A DNA stretch of 64,000 nt from Okamejei kenojei (lineage: Eukaryota). Position numbers and translations under genes: made by a program. Location of the stretch: NCBI GenBank assembly GCA_035221665.1, contig CM069162.1:9734001-9798000 (forward strand), in the 5' to 3' direction. Positions 4,693 through 61,439 of this stretch are shown here, in pieces; position 1 is the first letter of the stretch; every line of letters begins with the position of its first letter. The notes under the pieces were generated by a model. The model searched no databases and was not told the DNA's origin. It worked only from the letters and a program-made list of their open reading frames with translations.

Positions 4693-4828
4693 CAATCTGA
4701 AGAAGGGTCTCGACCCGATATTTCACCTATTCCTTTGCTCCATAGATGTTGCCTCACTCGCTGAGTTTCTCCAGCATTTTTGTCTCCCTTCGATTTTTCC
4801 AGCATCTGCAGTTCTTTCTTAAACAATG
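4693..4828 (+). mobile_element. Short Penelope-derived (pLTR/hammerhead) insertion
   Basis: ctgaagaagggtctcgaccc...ctgcagttctttct consensus; 12-bp TSD catctgctggat at 4681-4692 and 4829-4840. Confidence 0.75.
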
Positions 4829-4944
4829 CATCTGCTGGATAATGTTGATTGGTTTCCCTTGGAGCCTCTTCTTTCTTGCAGTGAGTCAACTGGGCACCCA
4901 GCTGATAGACACAAAGTACTGGAGTAATTCAGCAGGGCAGGGAG

Positions 4945-5480
4945 CATAGAGTCATAGAGTGATACAGTGTGGAAACAGGCCCTTCGGCCCAACACGCCCA
5001 TACCCGCCAACAATGTCCCAGCTGCACTAGTCCCACTTGCCTGTGCTTGGTCCATATCCCTCCAAACCTGTCTAACTGTTTCTTAAACAATGGGATAGTC
5101 CCAGCCTCAACTATCTCTTCTGGCAGCTTGTTCCATACATCCACCACCCTTTGAGTGAAAAAGTTACTGCTCAGATTCCTATTAAATCTTTTCCCCTTCA
5201 CCTTAAACCTATGTCCTATGGTCCTCTATTCCCCTATTCTGGGCAAAAGACTGCGCATCGACCCGATCTATTCCTCTCATGATTTTGTGTACCTTTGTAA
5301 GATCTCCCCTCATCTTCCTGCACTCCACGGAATAGAGACCCACCCTACTCAACCATTCCCTATAGCTCGCACCCTCTAGTCCTGGCAACATCCTCGTAAA
5401 ACTTTTCTGAACCCTTTCAAGCTTGACAATATATTTCCTATAACATAGTGACCAGAACTGAACACAATATTCTAAATGGG
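4945..5480 (-). mobile_element. CR1 LINE 3' end inserted in a Penelope-derived short element
   Basis: Minus ORFs read HLEYCVQFWS...LERVQKSFTRMLPGL and FFTQRVVDVWNKLP; (CTATGACT)-type tail at the left end. Halves of the host element lie at ~4905-4944 and ~5488-5554. Confidence 0.85.
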
Positions 5481-5555
5481 TTCTCGTGCGGGACAGGCAG
5501 CATCTCTGCAGAGAAGGAATGGATGATGTTTTGGGTCGAGACCCTTCTTCAGACA

Positions 5556-5775
5556 TGTTCCAGGCATCCTCTGTGTAAAGAACTTGCCCCGCACATCTTT
5601 AAACTTTTCCCCGCTCATCTTAAAGCTATCCCACTAGTCTTTAACATTTCCACTCTGGGGAAAAAGGTTCTGGCTGCTTACCCTTTGTCTGCTTCTCATA
5701 ATTTTTTATAATTCGATCAGGTCTCCCCTCAACCTCCAACGCTCCAGAGAAAACAATCTAAGTTGTGTCCTCACT
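5556..5775 (-). mobile_element. CR1 LINE fragment
   Basis: gtctcccctcaacctccaacgctccagagaaaacaatcta is a typical reverse-strand CR1 RT C-terminal segment. Confidence 0.7.
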
Positions 5776-6305
5776 CAGAGAGCGATGGTTATTATCTGTG
5801 GATGTGTAATCGGCCTTTCTTGAAATCCACGAAAATGTACAATCTACTGTGGCATAAAATGTTTGTTAAATTCAGTGTAAACCTTTTCAAATAATTGCAT
5901 TCTTAGTGTCTGACCAAATGTAATATCAGGCAACATTTTAAGACATAAATCTCTTAAGATTCTTTCTTGCACTTTAAGAGGCTTCTGTGTTAATTCATCA
6001 TTGAAATGTTTACCTAGTTTAAATTGCAGTTGCATCATAAAACCAGTGAAATGTCCATGTAATTACTAATTTTCTCATTTTTAATCATCCATAAAAGCCA
6101 TGAAGCATACAAAAACGAAATAAAAGCTTACACGGGCAGGAAATAGCAGCCTATCGGAGGACCCAGATGTGTGTACATTAGAATGATTGTTCACCCTCGG
6201 GCTGTTGAACTCTACTTCCTTTTTATGTAATAACATTAGGACCTGGTTGTTTATACAAAAATAACTCCTTTATGGTTTTAAAATAAAACCTGGAGTTCTG
6301 AAATA

Positions 6306-9499: not shown

Positions 9500-12390
9500 A
9501 TACATTTATTTATAGCCAGGATAAAACAAAATGATGGAAACACTCACCAGGTTAGAATAAGTTATTTTCAGTCGAAGAGATGTTTGGAAGTGATGAGTAG
9601 AGTAAAGAGTATCTCAAATAAACTGGTACTCAGAAGCCCATTTCACTTCTTTATATCTACTTTATTGTTTAAGCTGGCAAACAATATTAAAAGCGAATGG
9701 AAAGGCGAGCCAAAATAATGTTAGGCAGAAATGGCCAGTCCCGATTGGGACAAAATAAAAGAGTTGGTTACCTAAAATTTGAGAATTCAATGTTGAATCC
9801 AAGAGGCTGCAAAGTGCTCAGATGGAAGTTGAGATGTTGTTCCTTAAACTTGCATTGGGCCGTCGTTATAGTGCAGGCGTCAGAGTGAAAATATGTCAGA
9901 ATGAGAGGTGAAATTAAGATGGCAGGCAAACAGATCCTCAGGGTCATTGCTGTAGACTGTATGCAGGCGCTCTGCAAAGCCATTATCTAATCTGTAGGGA
10001 GGAACTGCAGATGAGCAAACAAAATCTGTATTTGTTTTCTCTAATATAGAGATGACAGCCATTGTGAGCACTGAATGCAGTACTTGATGGGGAAAAGTGC
10101 AAGGGAATGCTGCTTCACCTAGGATGATTGCTTATGTCCCTAGCTGGTGGGAAGGGAAGGGGGTGAAGGATAGGTGTTACAATTCTTGCAGTTTCATAAG
10201 AAAGTGCCATTAAAATGTGATTGGCTGGTGGGGATGGAGGAGCAAACATTGAATTGCAAAAGAAGCAATGTATTCAGCATGTTAATAGGGGAGGAGATGG
10301 GACGTGGTGGTTGAATCTTGTTAGAACGCACACCCGTATAATGCGATAGATTAGGTTGAATGTTAAGACTGGAGGGATGATAACCGGTGGTCTCTTGTTC
10401 TTGCTCTGTCTAAGAGGAGAGGGATTGAGAGCGGAGAACAGATGTGCAATTGGATCTGCAATTGGATCCTCGACTTCCTCATTCAAAGACCACAGACTGT
10501 TCCTATTGGTGGAAATGTGCCAGCCTCGATAACATTCAGCACGGGAGCACCTCAAGGCTGCGTGCTCAGCCCCCTGCTGTACTCACTCTATACTCATGAC
10601 TGCGTAGCCGGTCATAGTGCAAACTCCATCATCAAGTTCGCTGACGACACCACTGTTGTGGGACGTATCACTGATGGGGACGAGTCAGAGTATAGAAGTG
10701 AGATCGACCGACTGACCAAATGGTGCCATCACAATAACCTGGCCCTCAACACCAGCAAAACCAAGGAACTGATTGTGGACTTTGGAAGGAGTAGGATGGG
10801 GATCCACAGTCCTGTTTATATCAACGGGTCGATGGTGGAGAGGATCAAGAGCTTCAAATTCCTGGGCGTGCATATTTCTGAAGATCTCTCCTGGTCCGAG
10901 AACACTGATGCAATTATTAAGAAAGCACATCAGCGACTCTACTTCCTGAGAAGATTACGGAGAGTCAGTATTTCAAAGAGGACACTCTCTAACTTCTATA
11001 GGTGCACAGTAGAGAGCATGCTGACCAGTTGCATCATGGCTTGGTTTGGCAACTTGAGCGCCCAGGAGCGGAAAAGACTACAAAAAGTAGTAAACACTGC
11101 CCAGTCCATCATCGACTCTGACCTCCCTACCATCGAGGGGATCTATCGCAGTCGCTGCCTCAAAAAGGCTGGCAGCATCATCAAGGACCCACACCATCCT
11201 GGCCACACACTCATCTCCCTGCTACCTTCAGGTAGAAGGTACAGGAGCCTGAAGACTACAACGTCCAGGTTCAGAAATATCTACTTCCCCACAGCCATCA
11301 GGTTATTAAACTCAACTGAAACAAATCTCTGAACACTAATAGACCATTATCTGTTTATTTGCACTTTATCTGCTTATTTATTGATGTGTGTATATATTTA
11401 TATAATGGTATAAATGCTCACTGATATGATATGTTCTGTATTCGTGCCTACTATATTCCGTTGTGCTGGATGCAAAGCAAGAATTTCATTGTCCTATCTG
11501 GGACATATGACTATTGTGACAACTCTCTTGACTTGATGAGATGCAATCAAGTGTTCTGTCCAATTTGATTGAGAATAAGCTGTGGCCAGGAAGAAGGAAG
11601 TCATTTCAAAGACATCTGTAGAATGCCTTATCGTAGGACTAAATGCAACAGAGATGGAGGAAACAGAAACATGTAAAGGAGTCCTTCAAGGAAGCGGAGT
11701 GGGGGTATTATGTCCAAGGAGGCCATGGGAATTTGCCTGCTGCCAGCCTATCTCCTGAGCTGGAGACAAAGAGATCCAGAAAAGGAAGAAGTAGAAATAG
11801 ACCATGTGAGGCAAGAGCAGGTTTGAAACCGGCAGCAAAACATGACTAAATTTTTAAGTATAAGATCGAACGTAGTTTCAGTGTAGTTTCAATGTTCCTG
11901 AAAAATAAGTTGAGGAGATGACCTAAGTCGGACTGATCAAGAATGTGCCAAGTGTTTCACAAGACAAGTGTAGCTTGGTTACGTATGTGTGCCCATAGCC
12001 AATATTTGATGTGGAGAAAATGAATGGAATTGAAGGAGGAGTTGTTCAATATGAGGACATGGTTGGCCAGGTGAATGATCATGTTGGCAGAGCATGCATA
12101 ATGCAGGCAAAGTTGTATAATTGGCTTCTAACTGGCAGATTAATTCATTTGGTTTCAGCCTATTAAATACATTGGTCCATCCGCCCCAGCCAACCGACTA
12201 CCCTCTGCACCTCAAAAATAACTTGCTGCAACTTTTCACCAAAAGTCTCCATCTCTGTTTCCTGGTACCGACAGAGGGTTGGGAACCTGAAACATTAATC
12301 ATTTCTCTTTCCACTGATGCTTTATGCTGGGTCTTCCCAGAATTTTCTGTTTTAATTTTTGTTTTTTTGGCTTTTGCAGTTTTAATTCTT
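9500..12390 (-). mobile_element. Old Penelope-like element remnant (split by a Rex1 LINE)
   Basis: ORF 9768..9983 ends KFKEQHLNFHLSTLQPLGFNIEFSNFR, the typical C-terminus of vertebrate Penelope GIY-YIG ORFs; degenerate pLTR-like ends at ~9520-9600 and ~12265-12390. Confidence 0.65.
10445..11536 (+). mobile_element. 5'-truncated Rex1/Babar-type LINE with an uninterrupted RT C-terminal ORF
   Basis: ORF 10442..11332: [53 protein letters not shown]; 3' UTR ending in a (CTTGA)n tail. Confidence 0.9.
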
Positions 12391-12859: not shown

Positions 12860-13170
12860 GGGATAAAACAGAATGTATTTGTTTTAATCAAAGAAAATAG
12901 AGATGTTGGAATTCTAAAAGAAAACAGAAAATGTTGAAAGTATGCAGCTCATCGGTGGATTAGATATAATTTTGCAGCATTTTCCCGTGATCAGTTTTAT
13001 TCTGTCAGTGATATCCCTCTTTCTCCATCCTTCCTGCACGTTAACAAGCTCCTTCCGTCTCCTTCCCAGTTGTGATAAATGATATTCAACGTGAAATGGT
13101 AGCTCTGTTTCTCTTCTCACAGATGTGGCCTGATCTGCTGAGTATTTCCAGCATTCTATGTTTTTGTTTT
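12860..13170. mobile_element. Old foldback Penelope-derived element
   Basis: Inverted arms (aaaacagaaaatgttgaaagtatgcagc / gctgagtatttccagcattctatgttttt). Confidence 0.5.
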
Positions 13171-13579
13171 AACTTGTTTGAACAGGAGAACGTGCCTTAG
13201 GCTGGTATGTGTCATGTAGCACATCTACAGATTTGTTTAACACTGATGCAAAGTTTCTTATTTCAGATAAGTGCACAACCGTAGGGTTACAGCATCCACT
13301 CGTCTGAGCTAATGTTTTCACCTCAGAGAAGGTTTCAGGCATTTGTTGAATATTGGTGATATTGTGTCTCGAAGCAGCTTGAATTTCACTTTTCTAAATG
13401 CAAACTTGGTAATGCTTTCCATATATCCAAGAGAATTGCAGTTGCAGTTCAGCTCAGGAAGAGATGTGGGGGCGAAGGCTTTTCCTTGATTTATGGCTCG
13501 CGCTTTGTTTCAAATCAGTGGAAATTAATATATCATGATGATCTGTCCAGTGGGCAATAAAATAGACCAAAACTTTAAA

Positions 13580-15590: not shown

Positions 15591-15640
15591 ATCAGGATCT
15601 ACATAAACTGATCCTACCCAACAGGTATTATTTTCTTGTG

Positions 15641-16328
15641 TAAGAAAGAACTGCAGATGCTGGTTTAAACCGAAGAGGAACACAAAAATCTGGAGAAACT
15701 CGGCGGAACAGGCAGCATCTCTGGAGAGAAGGAAAGGGTGCGCCTCGGGTCGAACCCCTTCCTCAGACTGGATAGGGATAAGAAAAACGAGAGATATAGA
15801 TGGTGATGTGGAGAGATAAAGAACAATGAATTAAAGATATGCAAAAAAAGTAGCAATGATAGAGGAATCTGGCCATTTTTAGCTGTTTGTAAGGTGAAAA
15901 TGAGAAGCTAGTGCGACTTGGGTGGGGGATGGATAGAGAGAGAGGGAATGCCAGGATCCCCTGAAGTGAGATAAACCAATATTCATAACACTGGGCTGTA
16001 AACATATGAGATGCAGTTCCTCAGTATCTTATACATCGGCGAGACTAAACGCAGACTGGTTGATCGTTTCGCCGAACACCTTCGCTCAGCCCGTCTGAAC
16101 CTACCTAATCTCCCAGTTGCTGGACATTAATTCTCTTTACTCCCTCACCTTTACAATGGACGTACAGTCACTCTACACCTCCACCCCCTGAAAGTCCTCC
16201 GTTTCTTCCTCGAACGCAGAACCATCCAATTTCCCTCTAATAACATCTACTCTGCCTAGCGGAGCGGGTCCTCACCCTCAACAACTTCCCCTTTGACACC
16301 TCCCACTTCCTGCTATGGGCACCCGCGG
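15641..16328. mobile_element. Rearranged Penelope-like element (pLTR/EN C-terminus on minus; GIY-YIG and RT fragments on plus)
   Basis: 16029-16127 reads LYIGETKRRLVDRFAEHLRS (GIY-YIG); ~16150-16325 reads FTMDVQSLYTS...VLTLNNF...AMGTR (Penelope RT); 15641-15770 is the pLTR consensus. Confidence 0.85.
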
Positions 16329-16934: not shown

Positions 16935-17670
16935 ATGAAAATCAAAAAACTGCTGATGTCGAAACCCTGAAATAAAAACGTAGAATGTAGGAAATCTTGC
17001 CAGGTCGGGCAGCATCTGTGGAAAGAGAAACAGAGTCCTCTCTTCAGGTGGAAGACCCTTTGTCAGAAGCAAAGAAGTTCTATTGCAGGGTCAGTGATCT
17101 GAAACACTCATTAACCTTCCCACAAATAATGCTTGACCCGCTGAGGGATTCCATCATTCTGCTTTTATTTTGCACAAGGATAAACCATTTAAAATGTAGA
17201 ATCAGGGTGTCCAAAGATGTGGAATGGAAATATTGCATTCTGTTTCACAGGGCACTAGAACCACGTGTGGGATTGACAGAATGTACTGTTCAGCTGAACT
17301 AAACCGGAAACAAAAATCAAAACAAAAAACTGCATCCGAATTAAAAACAGAAAATGCCAGAAATCCTCAGCTAGTACGGCCTCATCTGTGAGAAGGGAAA
17401 TAGAACTCATGCTTCTTCAACCTGCAATATTAGCTCTGTTAGACACAGTGATAGAGTGACTCAACGGGTCAGGCAGCATTTCTGGGGGAAAGAAAGATGG
17501 ATGACGTTTCGGGTCAGGCCCCTTAAGAACTGCTGAGTTACTCCAGCACTTTGTGTCTATCTTTGGTGTAAACCAGCACCTGCAGTTCCTTTATTTCTAC
17601 ATGTTAGCTATGTTTCTCTTCTCACAGATGCGTCTTGACATTGAGTATTTCCAGCAATTTCTGTTTTATT
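16935..17670. mobile_element. Cluster of nested Penelope-derived foldback elements
   Basis: Several pLTR-like arms in both orientations; a younger copy (~17440-17600) sits inside an older one (17320-17670). Confidence 0.6.
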
Positions 17671-18020
17671 TCATGTTATCTGTACTGGGTTAGTGCAAAG
17701 GTGGAGGTACAATATTGGGCCTCACCCCTTTGTGATGTTTGTTAGCGTTTCAGTGACGAGGAAATTCCAGTTCCAAGTGGAAACTGAAATTTTAACATAT
17801 TTAAAAAGCTAGAGTACAAGCAGGGAATAGTTCTGGTACTATCTTGAAGTGAATCTTCTACCTTTTTGCATACTAGTCCTGCAAGAGTAATGCTGTGGGT
17901 GAGACCAGAGAGAAATGTTGGGTTCTCGGCACCACAGCATCAGAGGGGTTTCTTACTCTTGCAGGGATTGCAACATGGATATTCGAGAATGATACCTGTC
18001 TTCAATGATTATGTTAGCAG

Positions 18021-18143
18021 GAGAAGGTGGACAAAAATGCTGGAGAAACTCAGCAGGTGAGGCAGCATCTATGGAGAGAAGGAAGAGGCGACGTTTCGGA
18101 TCGAAACCCTTCTTCAGACAGCCTCTGCAGTTCTTTCTTAAGC
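18021..18143 (-). mobile_element. Short Penelope-derived insertion with an intact hammerhead core
   Basis: Minus strand CTGAAGA-AGGGTTTCGATCC-GAAACGTC at 18090-18117; 10-bp TSD atgttagcag at 18011-18020 and 18144-18153; inside an old CR1 (~17760-18530). Confidence 0.8.
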
Positions 18144-23600: not shown

Positions 23601-24119
23601 CACCACTGAACTGGTTACATCTGCATCTCTACCTTGACATGTCACTACTCGGGTCAATGTGCCACGAAAGGTCAATAAAAATACGGTGTTATTTTATTTC
23701 ACCCCATTTGATTCTTTTCATGAATCATTGCCATAGTTAGAAAATGAAAGTAAGCACTGCAAAGTTTAATTTGTTTGGATAGGTTGAAAAGAAGCAAGAT
23801 TAATGCCTATATTAAATGCATTAAAAACTAAAGATAAGTTGTTTTGAAACTGATTTAGATTTGATATTTAAGATGCTGCAGTTGGTGTGGAGATGGAGAT
23901 ATGTCGTTGGAATTTCAGAATATTACCTAGTTATCTTTTGAATTGTAAAGCTTGAGAAACATGAGTAGAAATAGATAGACCAGTTAGACCTAAACTCGCT
24001 GGACTATTCAGTATGATCGTGACTGATCTCATCTTTACTTCAAAACCACTTTCCCACTCTTTCCCCAAACCATTTGACTCTTTTGAAGTTCAATGCTGTT
24101 CAAGAGATATGTATAAATG

Positions 24120-24235
24120 TGGGCACAAAATGCTGGATTAACTCAGCGGGACAGGACTGGAGAGAAGGAATGGGAGATGTTTTGGGTCGAGACTCTTCTT
24201 CAGACTGATGTCAGGGGAGTGGGCGGGACAAAGCT
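24120..24235 (-). mobile_element. Short Penelope-derived insertion
   Basis: cacaaaatgctgg...gagactcttcttcagactgatg; imperfect duplication atgtataaatgtgg / atgtacaaacgtgg on the flanks. Confidence 0.7.
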
Positions 24236-26464
24236 GGGATGTTTAAATTTAGAATGTACAAACGTGGACATTGGATCAGTTGTGTATGGCTTTAATTATC
24301 CACTGCATTCCTCCACTTCCCTTCCCAGCCCATGATCTACCTCGTGTTTCCAATTCCTGCCTGCCATGGCTGAAAAACTTAATGGACACTGACCATAAGA
24401 AAATAATGTGAAAGAAGAAACCTGGAACAAACTATAGGAGGTGGGCAGGCCTGCCTGTGGAAATTTAATCTGGACTTCAGCTGAATGCCGAAAATTAAAT
24501 GGGAAAAGAAAAAAAATGTTACTTGGATGTGAAAGATGGAATAGATGATAGCTGTGGCAGTCACCCAAAACATGTGAAGTAAACAGGCACTCTTTGATTA
24601 AAATGGCTTTTGTGCAAATGATTCACATTTTATCTGCCAACCAATGTTTGACTTTGTATGAAGATAGAGACGAGAGATTCTGATGATGTCAAATTAACAT
24701 CTTTTAGTTATGAGGGAGGACAATGATCGATCATTTCTGCTGTATCTTGCATTTAATATGTTCCAGCATTTACTGTGTGCTCCCCATATTTATTAATAAT
24801 GCGAACACTATTTATAGATTAAAATAGGGAATAGAATCCCTTAATTCTCCTATATTGATTAAATATTTAGAAAATTTAATTTTTACGAGCAATGTAAAGC
24901 AGATGTTATGAAGAACATATTTTCATTATATTTTATGCCGTGCCGATTTAAGTCACAGCAAAGGACACTAGCTTTGAACTACCTACAGGGACTAATATCT
25001 AAATAAAAGGAGATTGGTTCCAACCTTTTACATCGGAAGCAAATGATTTCCTGAACATCTGACTGGTTTGTTCAGTATTTTCCTGCCAGATTCACTCTGC
25101 CCTGTGTAGCTGATATTCATAGTTGTGAGAAATAGAGGTGACAGATGGCCAAATTGCCTTCAAAGCTAGCAGAGGTTTTAAATATAAATAGTGTAGGTAA
25201 CAGCTACGGATGCATAGTCCAAACAAAGGACCAGCCTGCCATAGCTAGTTTAACATCTGTGGTCACCCGCACCATTTTGTTTTACGTTGATCTGAAAAGA
25301 TTGTAGTCGGGGAGCATCTCCATGTGAGAGCAGCTGTGATTGTGCTTATTGCTAAATGTCATGTTGTGACAATGAGATCTTCTTACAGTATGTCAGTTAA
25401 ATGTAGGCAGAGAAAGTACATGAATAAGATATTTTGTGAGGCTGTTAATAAAAACAGGGGTTCTATCCTTAGTCACATTTAACTAATGCCCTGTCTAAAT
25501 TTTGAGAATAATTTAATCTTTTTAAAATGTGAAGATTCTAATTACTGAGTACTACACACTTAGAAGTTACCCATTTTCTGTATTTTTATTCCATTCTTAA
25601 AATAAAGCAGTTTTTATTATAGGAATATCGTATTTTTGGATATGGGCATCAGTAAAAATGGTTCTAAATTTACCTGATGGTTGTCTCAAGTACATTTGTT
25701 AAACAAGTGAAAAATGAACAATTTAAATATATTCAGAAAGACAAGTTTCAACTGCATTTAAAACCTCACTGATCGCCGTTAAGTGATAAAAACAGCTTTG
25801 AAATTGCTTAATGTCCTAACTCAATCTTTTTAAACATCTAGATTTTATCAAATCCTTCAATTAAGGTAAAGATATTAAATAGATAATGTTGAAGGCTGTC
25901 CAGAGTAATAAAAGGAACATAAGCTATCTTATGTTATGTAATATTTACCTCATCTTTGCAATTGATTTTTAAATCATTTTCTGTTGAGGATCATTTGTGG
26001 AAATACAAATATATTTTAGGACTTAAATGTTATGCAGTTTCTTCCTTATTTATGCTTCTATGGACTAATATCTGTCCAATCTCATTGTGATTCAATTCTT
26101 ATATCTCTTTCTATTAATATTTCTATCTGTTATATATTCTTGCTGATTTTGTTTTATTGCATTTACACTTCTGTGTTTTTGCAAAATTGCTAATGGGGAA
26201 GGATTGATTTAAAGAGGTGGACCCATATAAACCGCGAACAATTTAGTCACACTTGGATAAAGCAGCAGATAGCAGTTTCAAAGATTTGTTTTATTGCAGC
26301 ATGTCAAAAATTGTAGACATTTTGTTGTAGACATTTTTCTACTAATACTTTCCATTTAATACCAGAATCTAATTGTACATTAGATGAGTATTCGTAAGGG
26401 CAAAAAATCTGCATTAAATATGATAAGCTGAGTGTTCTGGTTTTTTTTTTCGCTTTGCTATTCA

Positions 26465-27629: not shown

Positions 27630-27789
27630 AGGAAAGAACTGCAGATGCTGGTTTAAACCAAAGATAGACACAAAATGCTGGAGTAACTCAGCGGGACAAG
27701 CAGCATCTCTGGTGACCCATTCGTCACCCATTCCTTCTCTCCAGAGATGCTGCCTGTCCCGCTGAGTTACTTCAGCATTTTGTGTCTAC
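27630..27789. mobile_element. Foldback Penelope-derived insertion (ribozyme core deleted)
   Basis: Inverted arms gacacaaaatgctggagtaactcagcgggaca / tgtcccgctgagttacttcagcattttgtgtc; 14-bp TSD cctcttgattgtga at 27616-27629 and 27790-27803. Confidence 0.8.
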
Positions 27790-28181
27790 CCTCTTGATTG
27801 TGATGTGGGAATGTGGCCGATTCTTCCTTTGGGCCACTAGTTGTTGCCCTGGGAGAAGGAGATTCTTCTCCTGAAGATTCTTTTGCTAGCTTTGTAGCTG
27901 GCTTTGTTTTTGTAAAGAACACTTACATGTGGAGGAATATATCTCTGTATTTGCACTCCTTTGGAGGGATTTCAAATCTCTTTGAGATGGCACAAACCTT
28001 CTGTGAAAATTGAAGCACTCTAAGATAGGTCTCAGAGTTATTATGAGCATGCACTTAGCAATCTGTACGCAAGGAGTACTGCAGATAATGGATGAGTAAC
28101 TTGAGAATATTATTTATTTATGCAAAAACAATGAACTGCAGATGCTGGTTTATCCCAAAGAAGGCGCAAAATGTTTTGCTA

Positions 28182-28393
28182 AGGGCCTGTCCCACTTACG
28201 CGATTTTTTTTGGCAACTACAGGCATCATCCCACTTGGTGACACTTGTATGGTTGTGAGTAGTTGCCCAAAGAGTCGTACCTGTTTCTGGTCGCCGCTGG
28301 ATTTTCAACATGTTGAAAATGTTCGTCCACCTGCTGCGACTAATGACGGGTACCGGCAGTCACCAAAAAAATTGCGTTATTGGGACAGGCCGT
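28182..28393. mobile_element. MITE (PIF/Harbinger-like) inserted in a Penelope-derived element
   Basis: TIRs agggcctgtcccacttacgcgattttttt / aaaaaaattgcgttattgggacaggccgt; same termini as the 53.1-kb MITE. Confidence 0.7.
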
Positions 28394-28794
28394 GCATCTC
28401 TGGAGAATATGGATAAGTGATGTTTTGGGACCCTAATCCAGAGATGCTGCCTGACCTGTTGAATTACCAGTCTTTCCTACTGTGTTTATTTGTTTATTGT
28501 CGTTTGTCCACGTTGCTTGCTATCAAATTATTGCATCACTTCCTGATTTATTTACTTACTTTATTCTTGGAGTTTTGAAAGACCCCTTGGATACCCAGGA
28601 AATGGTTCTTGATTGACTTTACGAATAATACCATGAATGTAAAAGTACATTGAATGATGCCAACCCAGAAATCCATGGCTTCCACTTTGACATGCATATC
28701 CTGTGCAGACAGAAGTGCATCAAATTTGGGTGATGATACCTGAACCATAAACTGATCCTTGCTAGGTTGGGCAGACTCATTAGAACATGGAATG

Positions 28795-32427: not shown

Positions 32428-32745
32428 TGAAGGTAGACAAAAATGCTGGAGAAAATCAGCGGGTGAGGCAGCATCTATGGAGCGATGGAGTAGGTGACGT
32501 TTCGTGTCGCGACCCTTCTTCAGACTGATGTGGGGGGGGGGGGGGAGTGCGCCGGGAAAAAGATCGGAAGAGATGCTGTGGGAAAGCTGGGATGGGGAAG
32601 GAGGGAGAAAGCAAGGACTACCTGATATTGGAGAAATCAATGTTCATACCGCTGGGGTGTAAACTACCCAAGTGAAATATGAGGTGCTGCTCCAATTTGT
32701 GGTGGGACTCACTCTGGCCATGGAGGAGGCCCAGGCCAGAAAGCT
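32428..32745 (-). mobile_element. Penelope 3' end (EN C-terminus plus pLTR with hammerhead core)
   Basis: Minus strand encodes a KLEQHLIFHLGSLHPSGMNIDFSN-like peptide; CTGAAGA...GAAACGTC core at 32496-32523. Confidence 0.8.
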
Positions 32746-33504
32746 CGGATGTTGAGAAATCTGCTGTTGAAGACTGGGTTTGTGTGTTTTCCCTTTCTGC
32801 ACCATGTTTCTATTATTACTGACAAGTAAGAAGACAAGGCCAACTATCCTGAGTTTTTCCAGGTAAAACCAGTTGACATGTGACCAGGGACATTTGTTGG
32901 AAATTATCTTGGTAATAGCATTGGTACAAGATTGGGAACTTGTTACCTGTTTGGGCTTTTGGCAGGGAGGCTGGGTAAAAAAATATAATTTATAAAAAGA
33001 TATTCCCACAGTCGTCCATGTGTTTGGAGATCAGTCAGAATGCTGTAGTTTTACTATAGCTTGTATTTCCGTAATGCTAATTTTCTCCAATGCGAGACTT
33101 ACGAGCAGCACATCTATTGTGTTATTGTAGAGGTACATGCACATGTAAAATGGTATAATGCCTTGAATGCCACATGTAAATCACAGTTTTGGTTTAATTT
33201 TACTGGTCATACTAAAATAGTTCTAAATTTGAAAATAAAAGCATTTAGACCAATTGCTCAAAGTTATCCATGGAACTTCCTTGAATTTTATTCCCATTGA
33301 AATACATTTTGGTATCAATGGTGCTGTACTTTGCGTGCATCAATGGGTGACCAGTTTCCAGCACTAATCTTCTGGCACTGATTCAATCTGGTACATTTGT
33401 GGACTTATTATTACACAGATATGTACCACTTCAATTTTTTGGCTGCCATGAGACTCTTCAAATTGTAGAATGCAGATGGCAAAGGGAGTGCTATCAGATT
33501 TATA

Positions 33505-34690: not shown

Positions 34691-35034
34691 TATGGATCTC
34701 CAAATGTCTGCTGTTTATGAGCTGTTTGGCCATTAGTTTGCATTAATAAATCATGGTATAGTTATAGAAAGAACTTGCATGCATCATATAAATCATATAA
34801 GTCAGGTTGTCTTATCGACTGCTACTTAGAAAGGCAACTAACATTTATTTCTGGTTATATTGCCTTGTGTAGGATTTGATACTGGTGTCAGATCAAATTC
34901 AAAACCAATTTAGATTTAAATTCAAAACCAACAACGCTGGGAACACTTAGCAGATCAGGCAGCATCAATAGAGAAAGAAGCAGAGTTAATGTTTCGGGTC
35001 GATGAGCTTTCATCAGAACATGCATGGTATTAAA

Positions 35035-35133
35035 GGTAGGCAAAATTACTGGAGAAATTCAGCGGGTGCGGCAGCATCTATAGAACGAAGGAAATAGGCA
35101 ACGTTTCGGGCCGAAACCCTTCTTCAGACTGAT
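35035..35133 (-). mobile_element. 99-bp Penelope-derived insertion with an intact hammerhead core
   Basis: Core CTGAAGA-AGGGTTTCGGCCC-GAAACGTT at 35100-35127; exact 16-bp TSD catgcatggtattaaa at 35019-35034 and 35134-35149. An older pLTR family copy lies immediately upstream (~34925-35018). Confidence 0.85.
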
Positions 35134-36234: not shown

Positions 36235-37240
36235 GTTTAAAACAGGCCCTTCAACCCAACTCGTCCATGCTGACCAAGTTTTCTAACTGAACAAAACCCA
36301 CTTGCCTGCGCCTTGCCCATATCCCTTTAAACCTTTCTTATCCGTGTACCAGTCCAAATGTCTATTAAGTGTTGTAATTATATTAATCTTTACCACTTCC
36401 TCTGGCAGTTCGTTCCAGATATGCACTGCAGCATGAATGCAGCACGCCCAATGCCCTCTTCATCTGTCTACTTGGGTTACCACTTTCATGCAACTATGTA
36501 GTTGCATCCCTGGGTCTCGCTATTCTACACCACTCTCCAGGAGCCTGCCACTTAGAATGTAAGTCCTGCCCTGGCTTGTCCTATCAAAATACAACACCTC
36601 ACATTAATCTGAATTACTGTTCATCAGCCTGTTGGCCCAATTGATAAAGATCCCATTGTAATCTTAGAAAACCTTCAGTGTTCACCATGCCACCAACTTT
36701 AATGGTATCTGTAAATTTACTAACCATGCTACCTACAATCGCATTCAAATTGTTACTATAAATAATGAATATCGCTGGACCCAACACTGATCCCTGTGGT
36801 TTAACACTTGTTACAAGCCTCCAGTGTGGAAAAAAAACCTTCTTCCTCTACACTCTGTCTTCTACCTTCAAGCCAGTTGTTATATTGAGCTGGCTGCCTC
36901 GCCCTGGATCCCATGTTATCTAACCTTCAAAACCAACCTGCCAAATGGTACCTTGTTCAAGGACTGGCTAAGGTCCATGCAAACAACATCCACAACATTG
37001 CCCTCATCAATCCTCTTGGTGATCTCTTCAAAAACAATTAAATCAAATTTGTGAAACACTATTTCCCAGAAGGCCATGGTAATTATCCTCAGCCTGAAGA
37101 AGGATCTCGATCCAAAACATCACCCATTCCTTCTCCAGAGATACTGCCTGTCCCGCTGAGTTACTGCAACATTTTGTGTGTATCCCTAGTCATTCAAGAT
37201 GCATGGAGATAATATCTCAGGATTCACTCACCTTTCACCA
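36235..37240 (-). mobile_element. CR1 LINE fragment with a nested Penelope-derived insertion (~37093-37180)
   Basis: aacaggcccttcaacccaac terminus; ggacccaacactgatccctgtgg (PQGSVLGP on minus). Confidence 0.75.
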
Positions 37241-37299
37241 CCTCCCTCAGCCAAACATTTGATTCATTCTGGAGCTCCGTTCATTAACATTAATGGTGA

Positions 37300-37467
37300 T
37301 AGTCACAAAATGCTGAAGTAACTCAGCGGGAGAGGCAGCATCTCTGGATAGAAGGAATGAAGAAGGGTCTCTACCTGAAACATCACCCATTCCTTCTCTC
37401 CAGAGATGTTGCCTGTCCCGCTGAGTTACTCCAGCATTTTGTGTCTATCTTCGGTTTAAACCAGCAT
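37300..37467. mobile_element. Foldback Penelope-derived element
   Basis: Inverted arms cacaaaatgctgaagtaactcagcggg / cccgctgagttactccagcattttgtg. Confidence 0.75.
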
Positions 37468-41829: not shown

Positions 41830-41941
41830 ATAGGAAGGAACTGCAGATACTGGTTTATACCGAAGATGGGCACAAAGTATGGAGTAACTCAGCGAGTCAG
41901 GCAGCATCTCTGGTAATAGGTGACGTTTCTGACATTCTTCA
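41830..41941 (-). mobile_element. Short Penelope-derived insertion
   Basis: aggaaggaactgcagatactgg...gacgtttc..ttcttcag; 11-bp TSD gacattcatgt at 41819-41829 and 41942-41952. Confidence 0.75.
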
Positions 41942-48200: not shown

Positions 48201-48744
48201 TTTCCAGCATTTATCAAATGTAGTTTAGGTTGTTAGGTTTAGTTTATTCGGCACTACTTTTTTGTTACTCTTCAAGTTTTGCCATTAAATCTTGGATCAG
48301 TTAAGGGTATTGAGAGTAAATTATTTTGGGAAAGGATATTGAGGTAAGATTGCAGATTGTAGGATGGAAATTTGTTGAAAAGTGAAACATGTTCATTGAT
48401 TTATCCCAAAGTGCAGCCTGATTAATTCTGTACACTTGGTGGAATCTTTACTTGAATACATGAGGAATTACCCGTTACACTTTAAATCTCAAGGGATTTT
48501 CATGTTTTGAATTTTAGGGTCCATGTAAGATATGGAAGTTTATAAATTGATTGTTTTCAGTTCAGCAATTGTAAATTGTCATATAAATTACAGCTGTAAA
48601 GTGTTTGGTATAATTTGTTAATTACAATGTGTGAACCATGGCTATTTTCAGAAGTACAGTAAACCCTCGTTATAACAGATCATGTGGGGGGAAATGGTGT
48701 TAGTTATTGACAATTGTCCGCTATAACCAAGGAAGGTATTATCT

Positions 48745-49109
48745 TGGAGTAACACAGCGGGTCAGACAGCAGCTCTGGAGAAAAGGAATAGGTGATGTTT
48801 CGGGTCAAGACCCTTTTTCCTCACAACCCAAAACATCACTTCCATTTCTCCAGAGATGCTGTCTAACCCACTGAGTTAGACAGCTTTTTGTGTCTATCTT
48901 CATTTTAAACAACATCTACAGTTCCTTCCTGCACACAATGTGTGTTGTTGAAACAAAGAACTGCAGATGATGGTTAATACACTAAAGGACACAAAGTGCA
49001 GGAGTAACTCAACGGGTCAGGCAGCATCTCTGCAGAACATGGATAGGTGACATTGAGACCCTTCTTCAGACTGATTCAGTCTGCTGAGTTACTCCAGCAT
49101 TTTGTGTCA
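48745..49109. mobile_element. Two Penelope-derived foldback insertions nested in the Tigger-like element
   Basis: pLTR consensus arms at ~48745-48930 and ~48950-49109. Confidence 0.75.
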
Positions 49110-49283
49110 CTTCACCTTAAAACTAGGCACTGATGCCACTGGTCTGTATCAGCAAGCCCTTCCTCACCAACTACCACATGGTCCGGTTGAAATGACTGTT
49201 GTTGTGGCTCACGTTGTAGCCCTTCACTGACCGTGCTTTCTTCAGGCCGCCGCTACCGCCAGGATGTGCTTGGTCATTGGTGG
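49110..49283 (-). pseudogene. Decayed histone H1 (H15 globular domain)-like fragment
   Basis: Minus-strand translation across two frameshifts: PPMTKHILAVAAA / LKKARSVKGYNVSHNNSHFNRTMW*LVRKGLLIQTSGISA / SFKVK, versus the H1 consensus PPVSELITKAVAAS...[47 protein letters not shown]. Confidence 0.75.
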
Positions 49284-52209: not shown

Positions 52210-52410
52210 ATCAAAAATAATGCAGATGCTGGAAATCTAAAATTACAATACAAGCAACTTTGAATTTTCTGTATTTAAGTCTGAAGAAGGGTCTCGATCT
52301 TAAACGTCACCCGTCCCTTCTCTCCAGAGATGCTGCCTGTCCCGCTGAGTTACTCCGCATTTTTGTGTCTTCCTTTGAGTATTTCCAACATTTTCTGTTT
52401 TTATTTAAGG
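52210..52410. mobile_element. Nested Penelope-derived elements immediately downstream of a RERE exon
   Basis: Younger + strand copy at ~52280-52372 (ctgaagaagggtctcgatcttaaacgtc) inside older foldback arms. Confidence 0.7.
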
Positions 52411-54439: not shown

Positions 54440-55660
54440 ATAGAGCAGAAGCTCTGAACAACACAGGAACATGTTCATCAGCCCAGGAGGTTTGCGGCGA
54501 ACATGATGCCAAATTAAACTAATCTCTTCTGCCTGTACAGGATCCATTTCCCTCCATTCCTTGCGTATCTATGTGCCTATCTAAAAGCCTCTTAAATGCC
54601 ATTTTCATATCTGCTTCCACCATCACCTGTCAGAGCAATCCAAGCACCTACCATTCTCTATGTAACAACAAAACTTGGCCTGCACATCTCATTTAAACTT
54701 CCCCCTCTTTCATCTTAATGCTATGTCCTCCAGCTTGGGAAAAAGATTCCGACTGATAAGGCGAACAGCATTGAACACAATACTCCAAATGCAGCCTAAA
54801 CAAAGTTTTATAAAGTTGTCAAATGACTTCTTGACTTTTATACTTAGTGCTTTGACAAATGAGGGCAAGCATGCCATACACTTTATTTCCCACTTTATCT
54901 ACCTGTATAGGGAACGATTGAGTTGGACCCGAAAATCTCTCTGAACATCAATGCTTTTGAGGGTCTTGCCTTTAACTCTATCTTTTCCCCTTATATTTGA
55001 CCTGCCAAAGTGCATCAGGGGCCTAGATTAAACTCCCATCTGCCATTTTTGCGCCCATATGTGTAACTGATCTATGTTTTGCTGCATCTGTTGACAGCTT
55101 TCTTCACTATTCAACTCCACCAATTTTGGTCCATCTGCAAAACTTACGAACCAACCCATCTACATTTTTCTCCATGGTAGGCAAAAAAGCTGGAGAAACT
55201 CAGTGGGTGAGGCAGCATCTATGGAGCGAAGGAATAGGCGACGTTTTGGGTCGAGACCCTTCTTCAGACTGGTCTTCAGTGCAAAAATGAGAGCAGACAG
55301 ATCAAGCATTGCACTGCAAAATCAAAGTGCAAAGTTCAGTCTCAACCGCAGCGTTGCCTATTCCTTTGCTCCATAGATGCTGCCTCACCCGCTGAGTTTC
55401 TCCAGCTTTTTTGTCTACCTTCGAATTTTCCAGTATCTGCTGTTCTTTCGTAAATAAATAGATTTTTCTCCAAGTAGTTTGTACATATCCCGAACAGCGG
55501 AGGCCTCAGCCAAGGTTCATGTGGAACACCACAGGTCACAGGCCTCCAGGGAAAATAGCACTCTTCCACCGCAACTCTGTCTTCTATGCGTAAGCCAGAT
55601 CTGAATCCAAACCGTCAAGTTACCGTGGATCCCATGCAACTTAATCTTCTGAATCAGCCA
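54440..55660 (-). mobile_element. CR1 LINE fragment interrupted by a Penelope-derived foldback element
   Basis: gaacacaatactccaaatgc and ccatctgcaaaactt (FADD region on minus); ORF 55342..55569 begins WRPVTCGVP. Confidence 0.75.
55175..55461. mobile_element. Foldback Penelope-derived insertion
   Basis: Near-perfect ~70-bp inverted arms; 11-bp TSD atttttctcca at 55164-55174 and 55462-55472. Confidence 0.85.
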
Positions 55661-57525: not shown

Positions 57526-57679
57526 AATTAAACATCGATGATGACATTTATCACTGCCTTCAATGTGTCAGTGCAGTCTTTGGTTGATTGAGGAACGAGA
57601 ATCAGGACCTGGGCTGCAATGATCCTTGCCCTCCTTTAGGTATCCTTGATCTAGACTACCTACTCCTCATTAGGAGGTT

Positions 57680-58787: not shown

Positions 58788-58911
58788 TCGGGTCACGACT
58801 CGAAACGTCACCTATTCCTTCACTCCATAGATGCTGCCTCACCCGTTGAGTTTCTCCAGCATTTTTGTCTACCTTTGATTTCTCCAGCATCTGCAGTTTT
58901 TTCTTAAACAC
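58788..58911 (+). mobile_element. Short Penelope-derived insertion
   Basis: gggtcacgactcgaaacgtcacctattcc...ctgcagtttt; 12-bp TSD aaaatgtaaatt at 58776-58787 and 58912-58923. Confidence 0.8.
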
Positions 58912-59034
58912 AAAATGTAAATTGTGCATTTGAGAAAGATATACTTAAAATCATTACAGTTGTTGAGTGGCCCAATTTAACTGTCCACTTTTTTAAAGGC
59001 TTAAAGCTAACTCCCTGATTTACATACATGCCAT

Positions 59035-59277
59035 GATTGGTGCAGCGGTAGAGCTGCTGCCTTACAGCGCCAGAGACCCAGGTTCGTTCCTGACTATGGG
59101 TGCTGTCTGTATGAAGTTTGTACATTCTCCCTGTGACCACGTGAGTTTTCCCCAGCTTAATTAAAATTGTAAATTATCCTAGTGTGTAGGGTAATGCTAT
59201 TGCATGGGGTGATCGCTGGCCAGCGCGGACTCAGTTGGACGAAGGACCTGTTTCCGTGCTGTAGCTCTAAAGTCTAA
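59035..59277 (+). mobile_element. HE1-type V-SINE (internally deleted)
   Basis: ggtgcagcggtagagctgctgccttacagcgccagagacccaggttcg head; gaaggacctgtttccgtgctg tail. Confidence 0.85.
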
Positions 59278-60249
59278 GACACTTCAGTGCAGTGCTGAGG
59301 GAGTTCTGTATTATTGGTGTGGCACCTCTTGAGTGAGGTGCCAGGTCTAGAAACAGGCGAAAGTTAAAAATGGTTTAACAAGAGAAAAATCTGGAAACAC
59401 TCACAAGATTAGACAGTCTCTGTGATAAGAGGAACAGAGATGACATTTTAGGTCAAAGACCCTTTGTTGGGATTATTTGACCTGAAAGATTAATGCTGTT
59501 TCTCTTTCCATAGTTGCCCGAACTACTGAGTGTTCCCAGCTCCTCCTGTCGTTATTTTGGATTTCCAGCATCTGCAGATTTTTCCTTTTTGTTTACTGTA
59601 CAGTTTACTGTTATAGTATTACATGAAGGAAAGCCTGCTGGTGTTCTGATCAATATATCAAGTTGGAGATTGCCTTGAGTAACAATACATTCATTGAAAA
59701 AATAATTGACTAAATAAAGCTGCTGTCAACATTTTCCTTTTTTATTTATGACTTTTTTGATTATTATACTAGATTATACTATTATTATTACTAGTCATCG
59801 AACTATGCACTTTTGACATTTTATGAGACTTAACGTTTTGTATAAAAATAATTATTGAATTCAAGCTGTGCTCAAATTCTTCTTCTTGTTCTATTTGTTT
59901 GTGCTTTTTATTCTTTTGCTTAAAACATTTTTTTTCCCTGTTATATGTCTGCCTGTAATCCTGACATCTGAAAGCCATAAAGATTAATAGCTTCCAGGCA
60001 GGGAAAATGAGAGCAAGATGAATTGTTTTTAAGTTGGCACATGTGAGTTCTTTATTAAATACAACAGAACATGAAAATATAACAAATTAGATTCACAGAT
60101 GATTTAAAAGCTATATCTTAGCTTACACCAAGATGTGGCTTAATAAAGCTTACAAGCAATGTTGACATTTGTTTAATAAAACTGTTTTGGAAAAAAGCAG
60201 CTTAGAACAAAGGTATCCTATTATGTAGTCATGATAGGTACCCTGATAA

Positions 60250-60600
60250 ATTATGAGTGGGTATTTTTCACTTAATACATCAAACTATTTCTCTACAGCA
60301 AAATCTCACCAATAACATAGAGATAAATGATCAGTTAATCTGTTTTTGGTGATCTTGGTTGAGAGAAGGTTGTTAACGGGGCATAAAAAAAGTTTGAACA
60401 GTTGACAATAGATAGGATCTTTGATTTTTTTAATCAAAATAGGCAATTGATGTTAAATTTAATTTGCTGTTTAGGTGAATTTTCTGTTTTAGTGTGTCCA
60501 GATAATAGCAATTATGCTTTCTGGCTGTGATTCTTCAGCAACAAAGTACTTTGGGTATCCTGAGAATGTGCTTGTACTACACGTTAATTATTTCTTGTGT
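60250..60600 (-). mobile_element. Very old DeuSINE/SacSINE1-like remnant
   Basis: aatgatcagttaatctgtttttggtgatcttggttgag...ggatctttt resembles the reverse complement of the Deu-domain SINE body; similar traces at ~57090-57210 and ~59278-59345. Confidence 0.4.
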
Positions 60601-61004
60601 AAATGTCTGGCTACTTAGCTCAACAATACAGAGCTCTCACAGCACAGATTACTTTGTGCACCCATTCCTAGATTGAGTTGTGATCATATCTTAAACTGAT
60701 ACTTGAAACTCAGTCTTGCTTTGGATAAAACAAGTCCTAATCACTAATTTGTAAACTTCAGGAAAGGACAATCTGGGATTATCCATCATTTTTTGAGTTT
60801 GTTTGCTACCATAGTTGGATACTTGAAAAATCCTGTGCCTTTCTGTATTTACAAAATAACCGTTTAATGTTTACTTGGAAGAATTCCTTTAAAACTCTTC
60901 TAAAAACATAATTTTTAGTCATTGTTTTCTACAGACATTACTGCGAATAAAATGTAAACATTTTGGCATTTTAATTCCATTCTAATCAAAAGCGAATGAT
61001 TTCT

Positions 61005-61439
61005 TAATAGAAACAAGAAACTGCAGATGCTACTTTACAAAATCGACACAAAGTGCAGGAGTAACTCAGCGTGTCGGGCCGCATCTCTGGAGAATGTGGA
61101 AAGGTGATGTTTTTGGGAGCCCCTCCCCACGTCCCCTACATGTCGCACTTATTTCTCCGCTCTCCTCTTTTACCTACATTCCTTCCTCCATCTTTACAAT
61201 TCGCATCTCTACAATCCTTTTGTCTTTTCATCTCTGGCCTTCTTCCAAATATCTGCCTATCACACGCCCTCCCCTCACTTCTATCAACCTATCTTTGTCC
61301 TTCCCCTCCCCTCATCCAGCTTTCTTCCATCCCACTGCAATCAGTCTGCAGAAAGATCTCAACCTGAAATGTCACCTATCTGTATTCTCCAGGGATGTTG
61401 CCTGACCCGCTGAGTTACTCCAGCACTTTGTATCACTTT
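61005..61439. mobile_element. Foldback Penelope-derived element with a pyrimidine-rich spacer
   Basis: Inverted pLTR arms; 11-bp TSD gaatgatttct at 60994-61004 and 61440-61450. Confidence 0.8.

Follow-up and report, generated by a model that had tools for sequence, protein, structure and literature searches.

Hammerhead-bearing repeats in a window of Okamejei kenojei DNA are mostly decayed 3' ends of Penelope-like elements and have clustered end positions

Short copies of one repeat are scattered through the window, the single 64-kb stretch of Okamejei kenojei DNA that was analysed (Table 1). An nhmmer profile built from copies in the window recovered 40 fragments, compared with 0 in each of 20 shuffled windows searched with the same profile, and these fragments correspond to ~20 younger and 8 older insertions that cover 5.9% of the window (7.4% when long parts are counted). 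The family of about 20 elements proposed in an earlier note on this DNA is thus real. All eight of the exact target site duplications (TSDs, 10-16 bp) that it listed are also present, and TSDs of at least 10 bp flank 8 of 27 candidate insertion intervals versus 1.7% of 2000 random intervals, supporting separate retrotransposition events for the copies. The suggestion that the short unit inserted on its own holds in part: the TSDs are exact, but four of the eight TSD-flanked insertions are head-to-head inverted pairs and one has 220 nt of upstream pLTR.

Table 1. Repeat copies and associated features, in window positions. Element coordinates count the C of CUGA as +1; HHR, hammerhead ribozyme; PLE, Penelope-like element.
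Feature	Position	Strand	Details
Single arm, subfamily A, tailed	4693..4828	+	5' end -4; HHR core broken; TSD 4681/4829 (12 bp)
3' fragment, +52 to ~+100, subfamily E	4893..4947	-	5' end unusable; excluded from end statistics
Arm, subfamily B, within LINE-like sequence	5488..5555	-	5' end -2; cut at +67
Old PLE remnant	9526..10382	-	linker + GIY-YIG region 9771-10382: 30% identity to P0002, E 3e-7
Weak downstream D-type piece of old PLE remnant	9526-9555	-	
Old (D-type) arm	12260..12381	+	
Old (D-type) arm with upstream pyrimidine tract	13039..13172	+	
ORF-linked copy, subfamily B	15633..16025	-	endonuclease C-terminus; pyrimidine-rich spacer of 193 nt; HHR broken (15766); tailed
Inverted 5' part of 15633..16025 insertion	16026..16328	+	YIG motif 16026-16127; RT pieces 16120-16188, 16247-16309
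Old head-to-head pair	16938..17170	.	tail on left arm, none on right
Old pair (17320-17436, 17597-17672)	17320..17672	.	interrupted by younger subfamily E pair
Younger subfamily E pair in old pair	17437-17596	.	5' ends +7, +60; one arm tailed
Pair	18021..18143	.	minus arm + inverted tail-only arm 18121-18143; TSD 18011/18144 (10 bp)
Minus arm of pair 18021..18143	18022-18120	-	-2 to ~+97; intact HHR 18117-18090
Arm, subfamily B, tailless	24113..24245	-	extends to ~-35
Head-to-head pair, subfamily B	27630..27789	.	5' ends +43, +25; without HHR 5' half; TSD 27616/27790 (14 bp)
Head-to-head pair	28126..28475	.	tailed arm interrupted by TIR-bounded insert ~28175-28391
ORF-linked copy, subfamily A, tailless	32428..32752	-	endonuclease C-terminus to 32621, then 97-nt spacer, HHR
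HHR of ORF-linked copy 32428..32752	32523-32496	-	core intact; one stem II mismatch
Old (D-type) arm	34916..35018	-	HHR with variant stem I, 3-nt loop II
Best short copy, tailless	35035..35133	-	5' end -6; intact HHR 35127-35100, predicted cut after 35100; TSD 35019/35134 (16 bp), some microhomology
Arm, subfamily B, tailless	37089..37186	+	5' end -5; holds sole double change in stem II
Head-to-head pair, subfamily B	37294..37467	.	5' ends +33, +2; right arm into tail (to +112)
Single tailed arm, stem II deleted	41830..41941	-	5' end -2 to +2 (3-nt microhomology); TSD 41819/41942 (11 bp)
Head-to-head pair	48740..48936	.	5' ends +3, +13; tail on right arm
Head-to-head pair, subfamily E	48942..49112	.	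5' ends -7, +62; tail on left arm
Arm, subfamily B	52278..52372	+	5' end -3; sits in decayed D-type sequence (52221-52407)
Head-to-head pair, subfamily A	55175..55461	.	5' ends -4, +14; right arm tailed; 69-nt filler 55273-55341, no source found within window; TSD 55164/55462 (11 bp)
Single tailed arm, subfamily A	58788..58911	+	5' end +9 (without CUGANGA); TSD 58776/58912 (12 bp)
Old head-to-head pair	59384..59587	.	tail on right arm
Head-to-head pair, subfamily E	61005..61439	.	TSD 60994/61440 (11 bp)
Tailed arm of pair 61005..61439	61005-61125		5' end +7
Long arm of pair 61005..61439	61126-61439		5' end -220; pyrimidine-rich upstream part

The Penelope origin claimed for the repeats is borne out, as subfamilies A, B and D each include a 3' unit linked to GIY-YIG/RT remnants, among them those reported earlier (found at 15633-16328 and 32591-32749). 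The linked RT and C-terminal GIY-YIG survive as remnants only, and the Pfam GIY-YIG match (E 0.024) is below the cut-off. Their best protein matches come from skate and ray at 59-75% identity; relative to P0002 (LOC134353856, Mobula hypostoma), the endonuclease C-terminus is 59% and the YIG region 65% identical. A CX2-5CxxC linker between RT and endonuclease marks Neptune/Nematis (PMC8557442). This linker region falls outside both younger remnants; it is present as CX4CX2C in P0002 and in decayed form in the old remnant. Judging from the skate and ray matches and the linker of P0002, the parent appears to be a Neptune-type PLE. Our literature search found no description of a skate or shark Neptune, which does not imply absence from print. 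No full-length element was found in the window, and the parent RNA, its start site and its ORF start are thus unseen. The repeats are mostly decayed copies of the PLE 3' end, which comprises the pLTR and 'tail' and bears the HHR.

The family majority, CUGAAGA-A-stem II-GAAA-CGU-C, has the consensus core read by the earlier note, and the family carries the minimal type I hammerhead of PLEs, as seen in this majority and in 3 of the 14 copies tested (18117, 32523 and 35127), the only ones with the whole core intact. That the elements contain a hammerhead core therefore fits the majority, but only two of the eight TSD-flanked insertions keep it whole. G12 is lost in 8/20 arms and G16.2 in 9/22, mostly through CpG decay. 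Stem II could not form as first drawn, since GGGTC-TC-GACCC as 5 bp with a 2-nt loop is impossible in cis and corresponds to 4 bp with a tetraloop; 5 bp in cis can be dismissed for the younger subfamilies but suits the old D type, with its 3-nt loop. Helix II is 4-5 bp, and helix I is 2 bp in younger copies and 3-4 bp in the old D type, with stem I having G-C in younger copies and U-A in 3 of 4 old ones. The covariation suggested for stem II is weak. Three pairs changed on both sides versus 2.4-2.8 in shuffles, and 13/500 and 6/500 shuffles reached the covariation score, in a control whose outcome is inflated by relatedness. Across helices I and II, 83% of cells pair, compared with 10-52% when the helices are slid, and double-change counts are no higher than in shuffles. 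RNAalifold predicted no consensus pairs for 17 HHR regions, and the Rfam search returned no hammerhead match either at the gathering score or at E<=10. The top Rfam matches were hairpin families hitting inverted pairs. The active dimer fold differs from the predicted minimum (-5 to -13 versus -23 to -25 kcal/mol), and folding of four short units gave z-scores of +0.35 to -1.2, nothing out of the ordinary. For 12 tailed arms, RNAalifold proposed one 8-bp helix joining ~+48 to the tail (0 double changes), which we record as a lead only.

Non-CpG core positions are somewhat better preserved than the rest (8/172 versus 158/1650 changed, p 0.036). Selection among short templates could account for this, but so could alignment-end trimming and subfamily variation. 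The hammerhead is the inherited minimal PLE ribozyme, which in the parent RNA probably works only when dimeric or assisted by protein. It does not set the ends of the short copies: none of the 28 arms terminates at the cleavage site (+28/+29), and the nearest ends lie at +25 and +33. To a specialist, neither the ribozyme nor the density of copies would be surprising, because metazoan PLE hammerheads have been described in thousands per genome, mostly as solitary motifs scattered about and ascribed to truncated PLEs (PMC4209133). The ribozyme and the type of jumping gene are both known, and the single unexpected feature is the fixed position of the ends, a clue to the way such elements are copied.

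At the 5' side, 11 of 28 younger arms end within the 11 nt from -7 to +3, the 5' edge of the hammerhead, where the hazard is 9.5% per nt compared with 0.5-0.7% elsewhere. A scan for such a peak was significant whichever distribution was fitted: p<5e-5 for the geometric, lognormal and gamma, 6.5e-4 for the normal. These ends were curated by eye, with microhomology blurring several by 2-3 nt. Ordinary random 5' truncation, with the peak an artefact of homology loss in a variable, low-complexity upstream region, would fit the general rule of 5' truncation in PLEs and the fact that upstream regions vary among subfamilies and align poorly; moreover, 3 of the 11 peak arms (5555, 37089 and 52278) have neither a TSD nor an inversion to fix the boundary. 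However, the peak stays when only TSD- or inversion-bounded arms are counted, with 8/23 in 11 nt (p 0.004-0.017) and 12/23 in 17 nt (p <=0.0004), where the two scan widths were picked after data inspection and arms within a pair are non-independent. We regard random truncation as quite improbable. Truncation is not continuous, as the length ends are clustered and random truncation fits poorly, and the copies form a discrete unit with a 5' peak at -7 to +9 and 3' ends at ~+95 (tailless) and ~+133 (tailed), two classes about 35-40 nt apart.

The 3' ends follow a second rule. In each of the 12 head-to-head pairs, one arm has a tail and the other lacks it (binomial p 2.4e-4 at 0.5), and single younger arms with a usable 3' end comprise four tailed and six tailless. 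In 8/8 measurable pairs, the two arms are more alike than 80-100% of other comparisons. The value of the copies is mechanistic, in that they give countable rules: each inverted pair bears a single tail, and there is an abrupt stop at the HHR 5' edge. The route by which PLEs produce pLTRs, inverted arms and tails is stated to be open in PMC3846280 and in the report on the anole element PAc (Poseidon_Ac, Anolis carolinensis; Frangieh et al. 2024, PMC11167929), and these rules would distinguish two-site priming of both target strands from an antisense self-priming model (PMC3846280). For PLEs, our literature search found no report of strong-stop, twin priming or a peak of 5' ends, which again does not imply absence from print.

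A discrete short unit might instead be a true non-autonomous, SINE-like family, in which short masters are transcribed from ~-6 and re-mobilised in trans, as the HHR and both RT start sites are present in short copies. The discrete 5' boundary and high copy density speak for it, and PAc insertion requires only the ORF-start region of the RNA; non-autonomous PLE derivatives are known (Chlamys MRC1), and A. vaga pLTRs work in trans. Against it, short arms form no clade distinct from long ones. In a tree of 25 younger arms and 93 columns, they are interleaved with long and ORF-linked arms in three subfamilies; holding the four long arms together was rejected (p-AU 5e-8), and with it a single short-only clade, as was holding the two ORF-linked arms together (p-AU 0.034). 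One non-autonomous master per subfamily would look identical in this tree, in which 1 of 22 branches is strongly supported, but separate masters with an identical boundary would then be required in A, B and E, and their promoter is only putative. The insertions show 5' truncation, an inverted 5' arm, an optional 30-40 nt tail and a short TSD; insertions of autonomous PLEs have been described with just such an inverted pair, one-sided tail and ~10-bp TSD (PMC3846280, PMC8557442). The separate SINE-like family of the earlier note is thus unsupported and, in our view, unlikely, although some short copies may have been re-mobilised.

Its retrozyme alternative, in which HHR-cleaved monomers circularise and are copied by rolling circle, fares worse still. 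An HHR is present, and pLTR-related retrozymes have been reported in vertebrates, including one chondrichthyan (bioRxiv 10.64898/2026.07.22.740005). However, the window has no head-to-tail arrays (the three neighbours found on one strand within 150 nt are insertions of different subfamilies, either nested or side by side), no arm ends at the cleavage site, short and long copies are intermixed, cores are seldom intact, and the HHR is of the minimal kind found in PLEs rather than the canonical one of retrozymes. We therefore consider a retrozyme origin very improbable.

We think it likely that the short elements are by-products of autonomous Neptune-type PLEs, copied by the elements' own RT/GIY-YIG protein from pLTR-containing RNA. 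The endonuclease would make a cut staggered by ~10-12 bp, as the TSDs suggest; cutting of both strands has been shown in vitro for PAc (PMC11167929). RT would then begin inside the RNA at ~+95 or ~+133, leaving tailless or tailed 3' ends, where the ends are observed here and the internal start is proposed by analogy with the two RT start sites of PAc, which the two end classes match. Both target ends might often be primed, one from each site, giving head-to-head pairs with exactly one tail. The RNA would be uncleaved, so that RT would pass through the hammerhead and usually end at its 5' edge (-7 to +9), a clustering observed here whose cause we infer. A few cDNAs would run ~30-250 nt past the edge, two of them into the ORF end, and the copies would decay after insertion.

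For the stop at the 5' edge, we give about half the weight to an RNA 5' end at an Inr-like TCAGT start, yielding strong-stop-like cDNA, somewhat less to RT being blocked immediately upstream, at the pyrimidine tract and candidate 3' splice site, and little to any other cause. In the subfamily A ORF-linked copy, a donor-like site lies at the ORF stop (32621) and the candidate acceptor at -2 (32525). A spliced template with an upstream exon found no support, as hard-bounded short copies have at most 6 nt upstream of the candidate acceptor and no common extra exon. It is possible, if doubtful, that the PLE transcript itself begins at the HHR 5' edge and that each 100/135-nt copy is a complete strong-stop-like cDNA, for which a dimeric RT would have primed both target strands using two internal start sites; a full short copy, having the start site, the ribozyme and both RT start sites, could then be re-copied as a minimal parasite. 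If true, the genome would preserve, on a very large scale, traces of two unresolved stages of PLE transposition, second-strand synthesis and pLTR formation.

The ribozyme resembles the minimal type I HHRs of metazoan PLEs (Cervera and De la Pena 2014, PMC4209133) in its core, the extra nucleotide before stem II, G10.1-C11.1, the palindromic 15.2-16.2 and the lack of helix III. Its helices I and II are shorter than those of Schistosoma (4-5 bp and 7-8 bp, respectively), and the available text of that study does not name cartilaginous fish among the hosts. Non-LTR retrozymes (Cervera and De la Pena 2020, PMC7229834; Li et al. 2026, bioRxiv 10.64898/2026.07.22.740005) are also non-coding, HHR-bearing and related to PLE pLTRs, but they occur as tandem repeats and circular RNA, whereas the copies here are dispersed single arms or head-to-head pairs with ends off the cleavage site. 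Neptune PLEs share 5' truncation, inverted 5' arms, a one-sided tail and 10-16 bp TSDs (PMC8557442, PMC3846280); most insertions here consist of the last 100-135 nt only, and a sharp boundary at the HHR edge is not mentioned in the available text of these sources. PAc belongs to the Poseidon clade, whereas the parent here appears Neptune-type, and the available text on PAc reports no 5'-end peak. In PAc, an ORF opens at HHR stem II, and the first RT start is located 111-118 nt into it (PMC11167929). Here, a PAc-style ATG at stem II is absent and no frame is conserved across all subfamilies: the frame from +1 is open to +93 in 5/7 copies and closed in subfamily E, and a translated-unit search found one protein among four candidates, without an RT domain. 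That the unit encodes the ORF N-terminus, as in PAc, is thus not established. Nevertheless, PAc likewise has its HHR ~100-135 nt upstream of two tail-defining RT start sites and extends both target strands, and its HHR mutants transpose normally in vitro from an uncleaved RNA template, so that in PAc, too, hammerhead cleavage is unneeded for insertion (PMC11167929).

Our results indicate that the short insertions are the ends of Neptune-type Penelope-like elements (PLEs) carrying the known minimal hammerhead ribozyme (HHR). The repeat family described in the earlier note is real: a fuzzy motif search recovered 14 HHR-like sites in the window and none in each of 10 shuffles, and an nhmmer profile built from the window copies recovered 40 fragments and none in each of 20 shuffles. 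After grouping, there are ~20 younger insertions (subfamilies A, B and E, with mean departures from their own-group majority of 7%, 8% and 15%, respectively) and ~8 older ones (D, whose copies form one clade with bootstrap 100), and PLE repeat insertions cover 5.9-7.4% of the window. All eight TSDs claimed earlier proved exact, and TSDs of at least 10 bp were found at 8 of 27 candidate intervals versus 1.7% of 2000 random intervals. Three of the 20 younger insertions (17437-17596, 35035-35133 and 52278-52372) lie within or next to older D-type copies, although such copies occupy ~2% of the available target sequence (post hoc p about 0.009); this suggests that PLEs prefer their own terminal repeat (pLTR) as insertion target.

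The reported attachment of the repeat to GIY-YIG/RT remnants also held, with matches at 32591-32749 and 16026-16309. The piece at 32621-32752 has its nearest named matches in the skate Rhinoraja longicauda (75%) and, next, the ray Mobula hypostoma (61%), pointing to a batoid. Relatives, rather than an RT tree, would place the element in the Neptune clade: the M. hypostoma protein P0002 (LOC134353856) has a CX4CX2C linker, the linker type that is a hallmark of Neptune/Nematis according to PMC8557442. The C-terminal end of P0001, an R. longicauda NCBI protein predicted as neuromedin-U receptor 1, is a PLE endonuclease (EN) C-terminus; either the gene model is in error or part of a PLE has been exonised.

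PLE-derived and other features in the window
Feature	Position	Strand	Remark
Long/ORF-linked arm, A	32428-32752
Long/ORF-linked arms, B	15633-16328, 24113-24245
Long/ORF-linked arm, E	61126-61439
Long/ORF-linked arm, D	9526-10382		weak link
EN piece	32591-32749	-	59% to P0002, E 3e-12
EN piece	16026-16127	+	65% to P0002, E 2e-7
RT pieces	16120-16188, 16247-16309
Third, older PLE remnant	9771-10382
~210-nt element, terminal inverted repeats	28175-28391		inserted in PLE arm; presumably resembles Harbinger-type MITE
Tc1/mariner transposase remnant	6999-7649	+	Pfam PF01498, E 1e-15
LINE RT remnant	10367-11332	+	Pfam RVT_1, E 4e-13
LINE RT remnants	29024-29563, 43255-43911	-
LINE RT remnant	61627-61998	+
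GC-rich minisatellite	18833-19598		29-38 bp units; higher-order periods 265-303 bp

Judged by its family consensus, the motif is a true minimal hammerhead of the PLE type, with putative self-cleavage. The hammerhead claim stands for the family majority, which has every core position, one additional A ahead of stem II and the ACGU palindrome, but most copies are broken, the core being intact in only 3 of the 14 tested. Of 20 arms, 8 have an altered G12, and G16.2 is altered in 9 of 22, the pattern expected if CpG sites decay once a copy has inserted. Core sites outside CpG changed somewhat less often than other sites (4.7% versus 9.6%; p 0.036, with alignment bias possible). GGGTC-TC-GACCC, read earlier as a 5-bp stem II, can pair in cis over no more than 4 bp, closed by a tetraloop, in the younger subfamilies, a fifth pair being compatible with the old D type (3-nt loop) or with an intermolecular duplex. 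HHR pairing is kept in 83% of cells versus 10-52% with slid partners, and stem I shows G-C to U-A in three of four old copies. Double changes in HHR stems, including stem II, were not above shuffles, RNAalifold returned no pairs for the window copies, and an Rfam search of the window gave no hammerhead match. A separate, decayed HDV-like ribozyme lies at 6592-6669 (-), near the Tc1 remnant and flanked by repeated ends (6319-6463 and 6656-6735); it scores 24 bits with the CPEB3 model against a gathering threshold of 35 (E 0.057 for the whole window, 3e-4 locally), has a perfect 8-bp P2 and is probably the 5' end of a LINE.

Numbering from the C of CUGA as +1, with the predicted HHR cut after +28, we curated by eye the 5' ends of 28 younger arms, an arm being one fragment of the HHR-bearing PLE 3' end (4893-4947 and all D-type arms excluded). 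They lie at -255, -225, -220, -35, -7, -6, -5, -4, -4, -3, -2, -2, 0, 2, 3, 7, 7, 8, 9, 13, 14, 25, 33, 43, 44, 60, 62 and 108. Eleven fall in -7..+3 and 15 in -7..+9, and the stop rate per nt is 9.5% in -7..+3, 4% in +4..+9 and 0.5-0.7% elsewhere. In none of 20000 simulations with a geometric, lognormal or gamma fit was the scan statistic equalled, and a normal fit gave p 6.5e-4. Restricted to the 23 arms that have a TSD or an inverted arm as their boundary, the scan gave p 0.004-0.017 for a width of 11 nt and <=0.0004 for 17 nt; the widths were set after the data were seen, and arms within a pair are not independent. None of the 28 arms ends at the cleavage site. The 5'-end distribution thus favours a discrete product over plain truncation, and this product is not defined by the ribozyme cut. 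A literature search, with key PLE reviews and repeat databases outside its scope, returned no report of this 5' stop.

What stops the RT at the HHR edge? Pyrimidines make up 68-80% of the 40 nt upstream of -5 in each of the five long copies examined. The stretch runs into CAG at positions -4 to -2 (in D, one base further), the next AG upstream lying at -25 or beyond. TCAGTC at this edge would fit the initiator of vertebrate promoters as well as a 3' splice acceptor. A donor-like AG/GTA lies over the ORF stop in two of three ORF ends (the third is altered), a match that an R-stop ending alone suffices to create. Candidate introns running between the ORF stop and the 5' edge of the HHR would span 97 nt in A (32621-32525, -), where the join would match the phase of the sole frame that stays open across the HHR, and 193 nt in B (15960-15768, -). 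The peak would mark a transcript 5' end at the HHR edge, to which we give about an even chance, or, somewhat less probably, a roadblock at an unspliced acceptor. In the accounts cited, the intron of Drosophila virilis Penelope ends at HHR helix I (PMC4209133), its start site lies 46 nt upstream of the intron (PMC2377424), and an Adineta vaga pLTR has an Inr-like TCACT (PMC3846280).

The claim that short units inserted alone fared less well: the TSDs are exact in 8 of 8, but four of these TSD-flanked insertions are head-to-head pairs of arms, missed earlier. There are 12 such paired insertions, with 3' ends outward. Arm 3' ends form two classes, about +95 and, with a tail, about +133. Each of the 12 pairs, nine younger and three older, has exactly one tailed arm (binomial p 2.4e-4 at 0.5). 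This count includes a tail cut short at +112, a tailless arm reaching only to +79 and a pair interrupted by an insert, and it excludes a decayed thirteenth pair (52221-52407). Among single younger arms whose 3' end is usable, four are tailed and six tailless. In all eight pairs with enough overlap, mutual arm similarity is higher than in 80-100% of other comparisons, consistent with one event per pair. CCAGCAT occurs twice in tailed arms (about +75 and +104, 28-30 nt apart), preceding the two 3' end classes by ~20 and ~30 nt. Both copies are potential partners of AGATGCTG at about +48, with no covariation support, and this arrangement may be the reason for two RT start sites. In Poseidon_Ac of Anolis carolinensis, as described in PMC11167929, RT starts internally at two sites that bound the tail, both target strands are cut and extended, and HHR mutants insert normally, HHR cleavage requiring protein.

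The earlier note proposed a SINE-like parasite of Penelope. In a tree built from 25 younger arms, the four long ones need four changes, the same as with shuffled labels, and grouping them apart, as a separate family would require, is rejected (p-AU 5e-8; 0.034 for the two ORF-linked arms alone). A single short-only family is thereby excluded, although this weak tree (1 of 22 branches starred) could accommodate a short master inside each subfamily.

We suggest that two features deserve genome-wide attention, the strict rule of one tail per pair and the sharp 5' stop. The elements are not the retrozyme that had been proposed: tandem arrays, the defining feature of non-LTR retrozymes in the passages cited (PMC7229834; bioRxiv 10.64898/2026.07.22.740005), are absent among the HHR units of the window. 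The family majority agrees in core, extra A and ACGU palindrome with the minimal PLE hammerheads as listed in PMC4209133. In that paper they reach thousands in a genome; most are solitary and probably stem from truncated PLEs, some lie on opposite strands at a distance of 100-700 bp, and cleavage is absent in the monomer and low in the dimer. Other PLEs are described with 8-10 bp TSDs (PMC3846280, PMC8557442), and, as far as these accounts go, the inverted arm and one-sided tail are common to them and to the window copies.
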